Source: a plasmid
Length of the DNA stretch: 3,133 bases
NCBI RefSeq assembly: GCF_057098645.1
Contig: NZ_JBXSPU010000007.1
Strand: one strand, 5' to 3'
Of the stretch, positions 1-3,133 are shown one piece after another; the first letter of the stretch is position 1; every line of letters starts with the position of its first letter. The notes under the pieces were generated by a model that searched no databases, was not told where the DNA came from, and saw only the letters and a program-made list of their open reading frames with translations. Position numbers and translations under genes: made by a program.

Positions 1-189
1 GATTGTATTGTTTATCGCATTACGCAGAGCAACCTCAATCATCTGGACAAGACAAAAAAAATCGCCAGACAGATCTTGGTAGGCAACGTATGCCCCAACC
101 TTTTCTTGATCAGTAGCGCACCCAAGAAATGTTTCATAGAAAGATAATCTTGGTACAGAAATTGAGCTAATTAAACTTGTTGTATCCAT
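1..189 (-). CDS. Abi_2 (AbiD/AbiF-type) HEPN abortive-infection protein, N-terminal 63 codons. The ORF leaves the window at position 1 and continues in frame at 3133.
   Basis: Minus-strand ATG at 189..187, with an in-frame TGA 9 nt upstream, so this is the first possible start. A weak GTGAG Shine-Dalgarno sits 5 nt upstream. My translation is MDTTSLISSISVPRLSFYETFLGCATDQEKVGAYVAYQDLSGDFFCLVQMIEVALRNAINNTI, with no stop before position 1. The pattern (S..RL..Y, then a hydrophobic stretch, then E-V-A-L-R-N-A-I) matches the N-terminal conserved block of Abi_2 family proteins as I recall it. The ORF track missed it because it has no stop inside the window. Confidence 0.8.
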   Translation of the reverse strand, partial: MDTTSLISSISVPRLSFYETFLGCATDQEKVGAYVAYQDLSGDFFCLVQMIEVALRNAINNTI

Positions 190-647: not shown

Positions 648-971
648 CTAATCTGCCATAAGCCTGGATAACAGGGCCCGGTGATACTCCGTAATAGCGA
701 TCAGCACCTCCGCATACTCTCTGTCCCCGACACGCTTGCCGTCGATAAAGAGTTTTTTCTGTAACGCCCCCAGTCTCATAACTTCTTTCAGTACCCGATC
801 ATCAGTCAGTGAGTTAACTTTCTTACCGAGAGCTGCCGCCCGTAAAAAACCGGAAACGGTCTTGCCGCATTCAGCAGCCCTTTTTCTGATTTCCTGGTCT
901 TCTTCTGCCGTCAGACGAACAGGGCGACTGATAGCCCGCCTGCGCGTATTACTTCCACTTCGTTTTGTCAT
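648..971 (-). CDS. mobC: MobC-family ribbon-helix-helix relaxosome accessory (mobilisation) protein, 107 aa
   Basis: This lies inside the tracked ORF 648..1061. I place the start at the ATG 971..969 (MTKRSGSNTRRRAISRPVRLTAEEDQEIRKRAAECGKTVSGFLRAAALGKKV...), which has a GGAG 9 nt upstream. The longer start would run through the oriT inverted repeat. R.V.LT.EE......A...G.S.S.FLR.AALG is the classic MobC/RHH N-terminal pattern. Confidence 0.8.
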   Translation of the reverse strand: MTKRSGSNTRRRAISRPVRLTAEEDQEIRKRAAECGKTVSGFLRAAALGKKVNSLTDDRVLKEVMRLGALQKKLFIDGKRVGDREYAEVLIAITEYHRALLSRLMAD

Positions 972-1255: not shown

Positions 1256-1450
1256 ATGAACAAGCAGCAGCAAACCGCACTTAACATGGCAAAATTCATA
1301 AAAAGCCAGAGCCTGACGCTGCTCGAAAAACTGGACTCACTCGATGCTGATGCACAGGCCGCCATGTGTGAGAAACTGCACGAACTCGCAGAAGAACTCC
1401 AGAACAGCATACAGACACGCTTTGAATCGGAAAGTGGCACCGGGGAATAA
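1256..1450 (+). CDS. rom: Rom/Rop, RNA I-RNA II interaction modulator (copy-number control), 64 aa
   Basis: MNKQQQTALNMAKFIKSQSLTLLEKLDSLDADAQAAMCEKLHELAEELQNSIQTRF... is clearly collinear with ColE1 Rom (MTKQEKTALNMARFIRSQTLTLLEKLNELDADEQADICESLHDHADELYRSCLARF...). The size is right and the gene sits next to the ColE1-type origin. Confidence 0.95.
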   Translation: MNKQQQTALNMAKFIKSQSLTLLEKLDSLDADAQAAMCEKLHELAEELQNSIQTRFESESGTGE

Positions 1451-2229: not shown

Positions 2230-2299
2230 GGAAATCCGCAATTAAATTATAAAAGTTTGTGGATTAATGGAAAAACTGATGTGAATCAGCTATTTATCC

Positions 2300-2328
2300 T
2301 TAAGATTTGATGTCAGATATGGTATAAT
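2300..2328 (+). promoter_or_regulatory. Candidate sigma70 promoter with an extended -10, driving the small transcript convergent with abi
   Basis: TTAAGA (2300..2305), a 17-nt spacer, then TGgTATAAT with a perfect TATAAT at 2323..2328. It lies in AT-rich intergenic DNA between the RNAII promoter and the abi 3' end. Confidence 0.5.
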
Positions 2329-2401
2329 TAACCATTCAAATAGATGGAATAAAAAGTCAACGCTGCCATTAGAACGGCATAAGAAATAGAGGATTATGAA
2401 A

Positions 2402-2545
2402 ATGAATACTAAAGTTCTTTTTGTGAAAAAAGCCTTGAAATCAATTACTTGCGCAATTCTTTCGCTCTTACCGGCTTTAAGTCGCGCAGTAACAGAGTTA
2501 CGTAGCCTTTCGGCTGCGCGACTTAAAGCCGGTAAGAGCTTTTGA
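2402..2545 (+). CDS. Hypothetical 47-aa basic peptide (49 aa if translation starts at the ATG at 2396). Coding status is doubtful.
   Basis: AGAGGA (2388..2393) lies 8 nt upstream of the ATG at 2402. Translation: MNTKVLFVKKALKSITCAILSLLPALSRAVTELRSLSAARLKAGKSF, stop TGA at 2543..2545. Against coding: more than half the ORF is occupied by a perfect 26-bp inverted repeat. It falls below the size cutoff of the supplied ORF track. Confidence 0.25.
   Translation: MNTKVLFVKKALKSITCAILSLLPALSRAVTELRSLSAARLKAGKSF
2464..2539. repeat. Perfect 26-bp inverted repeat with a 24-nt spacer that can itself form two mini-hairpins (Y-shaped or three-way junction)
   Basis: gctcttaccggctttaagtcgcgcag (2464..2489) is the exact reverse complement of ctgcgcgacttaaagccggtaagagc (2514..2539). 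The spacer taacagagttacgtagcctttcgg contains taac-aga-gtta and (a)gcc-tttc-ggc(t). It lies 30 nt beyond the abi stop codon. Confidence 0.9.
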
Positions 2546-2569
2546 TTGTATCACATTTTTCCTTAAAAG

Positions 2570-3133
2570 TCAACCGGCTACCTTAAGCTCCCTGCACTTA
2601 ATCCTCCCTATAATCCCCATAACATACTCTATCGTGCAGCGTTCATAAAAGCGCCTATCGTGCCCAATAAACTCAATAAGTTCCTTTTTCTCGTTAGAGA
2701 CGATACTCAAGGCATTCATTAAAAAATTGAACTCTTTCAACATATTATTTATGGCTTGACTATGCGACTTGCAGTGGTGTTTTTTCCAAATAGGCTCATG
2801 GTGAAAAAGTCGATTCCTAAACAAAAGAACTTTATGAAACTCGTCAAACAACGCTTTAACCTTCATATCCCCCCCACCCAAAGGATTCTTCGCATGAGGA
2901 AATGTTTTTGCCTTGTTCTCTGGAGTCCAGATGTAGCACGGCCTTTGCGTATCCCTATATGGGGCATCTAACATATAAACCCAAAAGCCAAAGGTTAGAC
3001 GGCAAATAACATCATCATCCGTATACCTTACGCCACACTCATCTAGCGCTTTTTGTTTCGCATTTAAAACAAGATCCTGAGATTTCTTTGTTTGAGGTAT
3101 AGAGTCGTACCAAGCAGGCCCATGATTAGCTTT
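2570..3133 (-). CDS. Abi_2 (AbiD/AbiF-type) HEPN abortive-infection protein, C-terminal 187 codons plus stop. This is the continuation of 189..1 across the circular junction.
   Basis: The tracked ORF 2570..2974 stays open upstream to the window edge: 53 further stop-free codons starting exactly at 3133 (KANHGPAWYDSIPQTKKSQDLVLNAKQKALDECGVRYTDDDVICRLTFGFWVY, then MLDAPYRD...). It contains LTFGFW and FRNRLFHHEPIW (RNRLFH encoded at 2818..2801). That is the Rx4H HEPN-type motif and the RN..aHHe.iW signature typical of Abi_2. The stop codon TGA is at 2572..2570. Confidence 0.85.
   Translation of the reverse strand, partial: KANHGPAWYDSIPQTKKSQDLVLNAKQKALDECGVRYTDDDVICRLTFGFWVYMLDAPYRDTQRPCYIWTPENKAKTFPHAKNPLGGGDMKVKALFDEFHKVLLFRNRLFHHEPIWKKHHCKSHSQAINNMLKEFNFLMNALSIVSNEKKELIEFIGHDRRFYERCTIEYVMGIIGRIKCRELKVAG

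Follow-up and report, generated by a model that had tools for sequence, protein, structure and literature searches.

How can a multicopy plasmid of 3 kb carry a lone gene for a putative HEPN RNase with no protein antitoxin? The question is raised by the stretch analysed here, 3,133 bp of plasmid DNA (contig NZ_JBXSPU010000007.1; "the window" is this whole stretch), which carries an abortive-infection-type gene, abi, on its minus strand. An earlier note on this DNA had expected a neutraliser encoded in cis, and had described AbiF as a toxin neutralised by a non-coding RNA (ncRNA) and as an ancestor of Cas13. This description was correct: in the literature, proteins of the AbiF/AbiD group are seen as ancestors of Cas13 and as toxins similar to those of type III, kept in check by a short ncRNA encoded upstream (PMC12373285, PMC12737573, PMC13064643). 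The expectation of an RNA neutraliser is also supported, since there is a candidate RNA partner, though it is not the abiF motif. Just upstream of abi, on the opposite strand (ca. 242-335, +), we found an unannotated small RNA (sRNA) gene of ca. 90 nt. It is served by a sigma-70-like promoter of its own and closed by an intrinsic terminator, with a core of two covarying helices in between. As far as sequence comparison can, the data below demonstrate the existence of this gene, its strand, its structure and its strict association with abi.

The small RNA gene upstream of abi

In the window the predicted sigma-70 promoter of the sRNA (207-235, +) is composed of a -35 box TTTACT (207-212), a 17-nt spacer and a -10 box TACCAT (230-235). 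Transcription is predicted to start near A242, ca. 53 nt upstream of the abi ATG, to read away from abi and to end at ca. 335. The structured core (242-292, +) consists of a helix P1 (GAGG/CCUC, 246-249/281-284) enclosing P2a (251-255/273-277) and P2b, with invariant internal-loop nucleotides (A250, a C, and GUA at 278-280) and a conserved single-stranded tail, UAGAGCGUAAA. It is followed by the intrinsic terminator I2 (293-338, +), with a GC core (GCCCACU/AGUGGGC) extended by A/U-run pairing and a U-run at 326-331. The complete I2 repeat (291-338) makes a perfect stem of 22 bp, and the segment 242-335 folds at -39.3 kcal/mol (z = -6.5). In this plasmid I2 is bidirectional and also stops read-in towards abi; no sense promoter was found upstream of the hairpin in the window. 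As to abi itself, its 5' region (190-241, -) reads as containing a Shine-Dalgarno (SD)-like GUGAG (199-195). TGtTGTAAT (242-234) could be an extended -10 and shares positions with the -10 of the sRNA. If this site is used, the two transcripts would be back-to-back and their promoters mutually exclusive.

The evidence for an RNA gene is comparative. Loci encoding Abi relatives were drawn from reference genomes, metagenomes and public assemblies, and in the clade of the window they contain a block of 47-51 nt, nearly identical, beside the hairpin just upstream of abi, when the Abi proteins of the carriers share merely 44-65% identity. Its surroundings vary widely: it occurs on other ColE1-type plasmids, in small integrative elements that encode integrases and AlpA-like proteins, and, in a Pasteurellaceae chromosome, between djlA and dus. 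RNAalifold, run on 11 sequences of this clade in the anti-abi orientation, gave P1 enclosing P2a/P2b, with double compensatory changes in 5 of the 13 pairs and two invariant G.U pairs, and the minimum-energy fold of the window's own RNA reproduces this consensus. When pairs were counted on the + strand, 99.3% of the cells were paired, with 14 double-change cells; 0 of 500 shuffles scored as high and slid controls reached 45-68%. The mirrored structure on the abi strand was paired in 76.9% of the cells; all 11 sequences break two of its pairs, and the invariant G.U pairs become C.A there. Inserts of variable length in three loci just lengthen the P2 stem. The terminator hairpin itself also differs in sequence from one locus to another, with compensatory changes.

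The flanking signals are found on the same strand. The U-run on the anti-abi side of the hairpin is universal in all clades, while that of the sense side is often absent, and a sigma-70-like promoter (TTTACN-17/18-TAnnAT) is present on the anti-abi strand in 10 of the 11 clade loci, scoring 8-10 of 12 versus 5.8 +/- 2.8 in shuffles. The -10 box ends 9-15 nt ahead of the CGAGG of the core, save for one outlier at 34 nt (L179). The universal U-run, the promoter at a set distance and the strand-specific pairing together indicate an sRNA on the strand opposite abi. With R1, a covariance model of the core, each locus gave one match, at 63-75 bits (72 in the window), always on the anti-abi strand and immediately upstream of abi, and there was none elsewhere in ca. 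810 kb. The only locus with two matches, L002 of Arsukibacterium (2753-2854, -), has two tandem sRNA cores ahead of a single terminator, reminiscent of both the two abiF motifs of RCd22 and the repeats of type III antitoxins.

RCd22/AbiFCd is the described arrangement that would have been expected here: promoter, an ncRNA of ca. 100 nt with two abiF motifs (RF03085), terminator and abiF, all on one strand. The corresponding sense order was considered for the window because of the hairpin 108 nt upstream, and rejected, both by the strand pairing test and because in that orientation the conserved block lies downstream of the hairpin. Nor is the abiF motif the partner RNA sought in the flanks: it was absent from both strands of the window at E <= 10, and RF03085 had no match at the gathering threshold in 60 homologue loci. 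The positive control, phage phiC2, gave 37.6 bits at 27065-27100 (+), 75 nt upstream of abiF and on the same strand. Other Rfam families (Thr, Phe and Trp leaders, rimP, several sRNAs and miRNAs) produced sub-threshold matches on both strands of 217-385 that all stack on the terminator hairpin and are artefacts of its generic shape; the leader and miRNA matches in the two flanks were likewise dismissed as artefacts of the terminator and of the I1 hairpin on the other side of abi. A search for conserved complementarity of the sRNA to the abi initiation region, as needed for trans base-pairing, found none.

As to its carriers, the sRNA-abi module of this clade often directly follows a gene of the AlpA/HTH_17-like kind; the small elements concerned (L082-L084, L087, L177, L180, L183) also encode Integrase_1, RepL or a DUF927 primase. 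Elements that combine such a gene with the module look like satellites or small integrative carriers.

The Abi protein and the other clades

Joined across the circular junction, positions 189..1 and 3133..2570 of the minus strand give an uninterrupted open reading frame (ORF) of 753 nt and 250 amino acids (aa), so that the gene reconstructed in the earlier note is intact. Codons 1-63 occupy 1-189 (-), from the ATG at 189-187, and codons 64-250 plus the TGA stop (2572-2570) occupy 2570-3133 (-). The two motifs that had been quoted are present as well: EVALRN at 36..19 (-), which contains the conserved E52-x3-R56-N57, and the HEPN Rx4H motif RNRLFHHE at 2818..2795 (-). Among 50 homologues, with identities of 24-65%, the residues E52, R56, N57, R169, N170, R171, H174 and H175 are invariant. 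The Rx4-6H motif (R169-N-R-L-F-H174), kept in 50 of 50, aligns with RNSCCHH of PbAbiF (8VZ6), and the E52 region with EVAVRS of the same protein. The product is a soluble, all-helical protein of the HEPN type with the three-dimensional fold of AbiF. Its assignment to Abi_2 stands as regards the HEPN motif and the AbiF fold, but not at the gathering threshold of Pfam: Abi_2 (PF07751) scores 19.9 bits (E = 9.8e-4), below the cut-off of 25.6, and matches residues 33-102 only. NCBIfam gave no match to the protein. On the other hand, the PADLOC hidden Markov model (HMM) of PD-T4-5 (PDLC04038) matches residues 4-229 (8-255 of the 309 profile positions) with 102.4 bits and E = 6.6e-30. Other family members score 89-138 bits, and every clade of relatives falls in the same range as the window protein. 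The abi product is thus a HEPN protein with the AbiF fold that belongs to the PD-T4-5 family. Probably it forms dimers, which would make the Rx4H RNase site, and RNase activity and toxicity may be expected by analogy with its characterised relatives.

The same opposite-strand layout, with a differing RNA sequence, was found in every other Abi clade examined. In clade V (Vibrio, Pseudoalteromonas and Rheinheimera, 14 distinct sequences) a promoter TTGCCC-17-TATATT precedes an RNA of ca. 111 nt, with pairing of 99.6% versus 88.7% in the sense orientation. In clade L (Legionella and relatives, 14 sequences) the promoter is TTGACA-18-CATAAT and the RNA has ca. 78 nt (99.0 versus 94.2%). Clade A, a betaproteobacterial group of 50 loci with longer proteins, has TTGAC-17-TAcAAT-6/7-AAGGUUGGUG... 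and, over 27 sequences, 97.2% of cells paired (sense, 86.3%); none of 500 shuffles reached this level, and slid controls stayed at 29-51%. For the core of this RNA the values were 96.3 and 81.7%. The short proteins of Burkholderiales are preceded by TTGACA-17-TATAGT and, as judged by eye, by a hairpin NNNN-CGAAY...GUUUU-NNNN common with the clade of the window. Also by eye, a similar layout is seen in an enterobacterial cluster that includes the Abi of an E. coli IncFII plasmid. Apart from a partial match of 13 bits in L005, R1 fails to pick up the sRNAs of other clades, and homology between the RNA classes is consequently unproven except for that match and the CGAAY...GUUUU hairpin.

An alignment-free scan, looking for a promoter, 40-160 nt and a terminator within the 260 nt upstream of each gene, recovered such units on the anti-abi strand in 96 of 153 distinct upstream regions of Gamma- and Betaproteobacteria, as against 4 for the abi strand and 0 for shuffles. 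At most loci of clades V, L and B the -35 box of the sRNA is only 5-20 nt from the abi start codon (ca. 48 nt at three Legionella loci), which means that there the two transcription units must interfere or overlap. These data raise a broader proposition, to which we give an even chance: that Abi systems of the PD-T4-5 type are obligate two-component RNA-protein systems, whose partner is an undescribed, fast-diverging family of divergently transcribed sRNAs (at least five classes, none in Rfam 15), with a promoter interlocked with the promoter or start of the toxin. If true, transcriptional interference would be coupled with direct neutralisation of an RNase, and the AbiF-ncRNA partnership ancestral to Cas13 would be seen to tolerate inversion of the RNA gene. 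A defence catalogued as single-gene becomes a testable RNA-protein pair, and at no fewer than 96 of the 153 loci genome annotation and defence-system finders now miss several classes of unannotated sRNA. Cloning such abi genes without the ca. 150 bp upstream, or in the wrong context, would be expected to result in toxicity or in loss of function.

The plasmid and the other flank of abi

The stretch is a linearised circular plasmid, 100% identical to complete circular E. coli plasmids of 3,133 bp. Twelve PLSDB records of this size match it at >=99.9% over the full length; their hosts are E. coli and Salmonella, and their sources human, pig, poultry and water. The backbone is of the ColE1 type, with RNAI at 2095-2195 (+; 95.9 bits in Rfam), the RNAII promoter TTGAGT-17-TAATCT at 2229-2201 (-), Rop at 1256-1450 (+) and a MobA/NikA-like gene at 648-971 (-). 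RefSeq also annotates a 37-aa "replication initiation protein" (WP_071790583.1; 1927-2040, +) inside the RNAII/ori region; this ORF, called on the ColE1 origin, is almost certainly spurious. ColE1 plasmids with other cargo are homologous to the window only over ca. 428-2200, and the cargo is therefore ca. 2236-3133 plus 1-427. Exactly at the border, where the homology to other ColE1 plasmids starts, there is a cer-like XerCD core, GGTGCGCGTAAGGGGAGTTATGGTAAAT (ca. 456-427, -), a position that raises the possibility of Xer recombination swapping cargo modules.

The module was found in 27 of 5,426 complete E. coli genomes. There is also a variant of the plasmid (L189, NZ_CP148481.1, 4750 bp) in which the ori/rop segment is duplicated, with two copies of rop and two of the spurious ORF. 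In the chromosome of E. coli strain 44 (L192, NZ_CM132959.1, 3375494-3384838) the entire 3.1-kb plasmid is located between two copies of IS26, beside nfsB and a disrupted wcaM, in what looks like capture of an IS26 cointegrate.

Aligned with three sister plasmids, the window backbone (428-2235) varies at 10.7% of columns and the cargo (2236-3133 plus 1-427) at 0-3%. There is not a single variable site in 190-338, the region of the sRNA, and the arms of I1 are invariant too. The low variation of the cargo seems to fit recent spread of the module across diverged backbones, strong constraint, or plasmids that are recombinants.

To describe abi as the only cargo, as had been done, slightly overstates the case, since the DNA outside the backbone also holds a 334-bp lineage-specific segment (2236-2569) with an ORF of 47-49 aa, a hypothetical protein in RefSeq. 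The segment is confined to this plasmid lineage (23 records). The ORF (49 aa, 2396-2545, +; RefSeq start at 2402) is preceded by an SD-like GAGGA and a promoter-like TTAAGA-17-TGgTATAAT (2300-2328), and has no Pfam match. It spans the inverted repeat I1 (2464-2539), with perfect arms of 26 bp, a 24-nt loop and z scores of -9.6 (+) and -11.1 (-). Two strong RNA structures flanking abi had been pointed out before, and both are real; the first, I2, is the terminator of the sRNA, but the second, I1, is not part of the conserved module. In the ColE1-type relatives L082 and L091, abi runs straight into the RNAI terminator without I1 or this ORF. We thus rejected I1 and the ORF as parts of the module, as they are found in one lineage only, lack a Pfam match and are absent from the other module loci; by sequence comparison both are lineage-specific. 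From its position, I1 probably separates abi, a convergent 2335-2545 transcript and the RNAII promoter from one another, as a terminator or insulator. The promoter-like site at 2300-2328 (+) that would drive the ORF faces another, TTGACT-17-TACAAT (2573-2545, -), firing into the hairpin in antisense; these convergent sites, restricted to this lineage of plasmids, could make up a sense/antisense pair.

A proposed antitoxin RNA, its rivals and the known systems

What might the sRNA do? We lean, with some reserve, towards a pair formed by an RNA antitoxin and a HEPN toxin and acting in abortive infection and addiction. The gene abi would produce the 250-aa HEPN protein, which as a dimer would make the Rx4H RNase site and be toxic when free. 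Going by AbiF-AbiFr and RCd22, the sRNA, transcribed from its own promoter, would most likely be an antitoxin similar to those of type III, binding the Abi dimer and blocking the active site; its transcription would probably also hold down that of abi, the promoters being adjoining or overlapping. Were the supply of sRNA to stop, by phage-induced host shut-off or by plasmid loss, the labile RNA would decay and the RNase would be freed, the outcome being abortive infection in one case or post-segregational killing in the other. We take the sRNA for a protein binder because its fold, with invariant loop and tail nucleotides, is kept across deep protein divergence, because of the tandem core in L002, because no conserved complementarity to the start region of abi was found and because the closest solved homologue is RNA-bound (8VZ6).

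Several observations weigh against this proposal. The ncRNAs described for AbiF are on the same strand as abiF and co-transcribed with it (PMC12373285, and also our phiC2 control), so that the analogy crosses a difference in architecture, and the RNA has no match to the abiF motif model. The sRNA promoter in the window itself scores a modest 8 of 12, and the core helix alone is not unusually stable (z = -1.0); the evidence for the structure is therefore comparative (covariation among the 11 related sequences of the clade) and not thermodynamic. The promoter of abi could be given only as a candidate, and its transcript may overlap the sRNA, with cis-antisense control as a consequence. Finally, abi is frameshifted in two of the three sister plasmids (CP042624.1, L186, and NZ_CP080232.1, L188), at a run of G7 (C7 at 2869-2875 on the + strand of the window), and ends at 152 and 155 aa, ahead of the HEPN motif; the plasmid thus persists without an intact toxin. 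These frameshifts could be real inactivation or phase variation of the toxin, or homopolymer sequencing errors.

One alternative is that the sRNA merely regulates abi expression, either as a cis-antisense RNA against an abi leader starting further upstream or by occlusion of the abi promoter by its own strong divergent one, that is, a type I-like or transcriptional-interference control. We regard this as rather unlikely, albeit with real points in its favour: the closeness of the sRNA -35 to the abi start in clades V, L and B makes the units compete or overlap; in L182 the gap between core and ATG is 19 nt and any leader there would be complementary to the 5' end of the sRNA; and in several loci an upstream gene on the same strand runs into a hairpin without a sense U-run, where antisense read-through would be possible. 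Yet cis-antisense action needs no conserved fold, and here helices covary and loop nucleotides are invariant at 44-65% protein identity, with no conserved complementarity to the abi initiation region. Besides, the window hairpin also terminates strongly in the sense direction, with no sense promoter found upstream of it, and the closest solved relative is neutralised by direct binding of RNA (8VZ6). A role as a required cofactor or guide of Abi, similar to a Cas13 crRNA or acting in sensing, is improbable, given that the AbiF systems solved and tested use their ncRNA as antitoxin (PMC12373285, PMC12737573) and that the RNA has no variable spacer-like segment, its variation being at compensatory stem positions and in the loop insert.

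The conserved block might also be a DNA element (operator or promoter of abi) or a sense 5' untranslated region, with no separate sRNA. It is indeed proximal to the abi promoter, and a high degree of conservation can also be found in promoters and operators, but an effect at the DNA level cannot account for the strand asymmetry of pairing (99.3 versus 76.9% in the window clade, 96.3 versus 81.7% in the clade A core), for the variable insertions that extend the P2 stem, or for the promoter and terminator on either side of the block, which 96 of 153 regions have on the anti strand and 4 in sense; we give this reading very little credence. Even less should be given to the idea that the neutraliser is on the other side of abi, namely the 47-49-aa ORF (2396/2402-2545) or the I1 hairpin. 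The ORF has its SD-like and extended -10 promoter-like sites and a RefSeq annotation, and the I1 arms are invariant in the sisters. Nevertheless, the segment is present in this lineage only, L082, L091 and all other contexts keep sRNA and abi without it, and the ORF has no Pfam match and is in great part made of the palindrome arms. Of the two kinds of cis neutraliser that had been foreseen, an RNA or a micro-peptide, only the former has thus found support, with the micro-peptide being extremely improbable.

The RNA-antitoxin and HEPN-toxin pair would explain how a lone HEPN RNase gene, without a protein antitoxin, can be carried on a 3-kb multicopy plasmid. It has several counterparts among known systems. 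Among them are the AbiF-ncRNA pairs (PbAbiF-AbiFr, PDB 8VZ6; AbiFCd-RCd22 of C. difficile; the lactococcal AbiD, AbiD1 and AbiF), from which the window differs in that its RNA is an opposite-strand unit with a promoter and terminator of its own and no match to RF03085, and in that its Abi has 250 aa, versus ca. 290-300, and falls under the Pfam Abi_2 threshold. With type III toxin-antitoxin systems (ToxIN, AbiQ/antiQ, CptIN, TenpIN) the likeness would be an RNase toxin beside an RNA antitoxin, an antitoxin excess controlled by a terminator, and an abortive-infection phenotype. Their antitoxins, however, are same-strand arrays of direct repeats in tandem that a Kid/CcdB-like toxin processes, whereas the window RNA is single-copy and opposite-strand and its toxin candidate is a HEPN protein. 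Type I systems and cis-antisense RNAs (hok/sok, or RNAI/RNAII on this same plasmid) resemble it in having a small constitutive, terminator-ended RNA, opposite or divergent, on a small plasmid. Here, in contrast, the toxin candidate is not a small hydrophobic peptide, and the RNA has a conserved fold and invariant loops. As to pairing with the abi mRNA, no conserved complementarity in trans was seen at the initiation region, whereas an overlap in cis would depend on where transcription of abi starts.

A further counterpart is the defence system PD-T4-5 (314 aa, from ECOR34), which is encoded on a plasmid, is distantly related to AbiF/D, confers protection against T4 through abortive infection and was cloned with 184 bp of upstream DNA (Vassallo et al., 2022, PMC9519451). 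That length suffices for an sRNA unit of the size seen here (ca. 150 bp). The locus of PD-T4-5 itself (RCQ99930.1, 314 aa) was not found, and the Abi proteins of P0060 and E. coli plasmids that were examined have 304-342 aa and are different. The window shares with PD-T4-5 the HMM match and the location on an E. coli plasmid, but its protein belongs to a different, shorter clade and is not the same gene, and PD-T4-5 is catalogued as a single-gene system without an RNA component. An AbiF-type HEPN toxin with an adjacent ncRNA is therefore a known kind of system, as is PD-T4-5 as a plasmid Abi system. What appears to be new, with the proviso that an earlier mention in the primary AbiF literature is possible, is that the PD-T4-5 family carries a partner sRNA, which has no sequence relation to the abiF motif, is not in Rfam 15 and is organised as an independent opposite-strand unit, with at least five RNA classes. 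It would widen the known AbiF-ncRNA architectures to include one in which the RNA is an independent transcription unit on the opposite strand.

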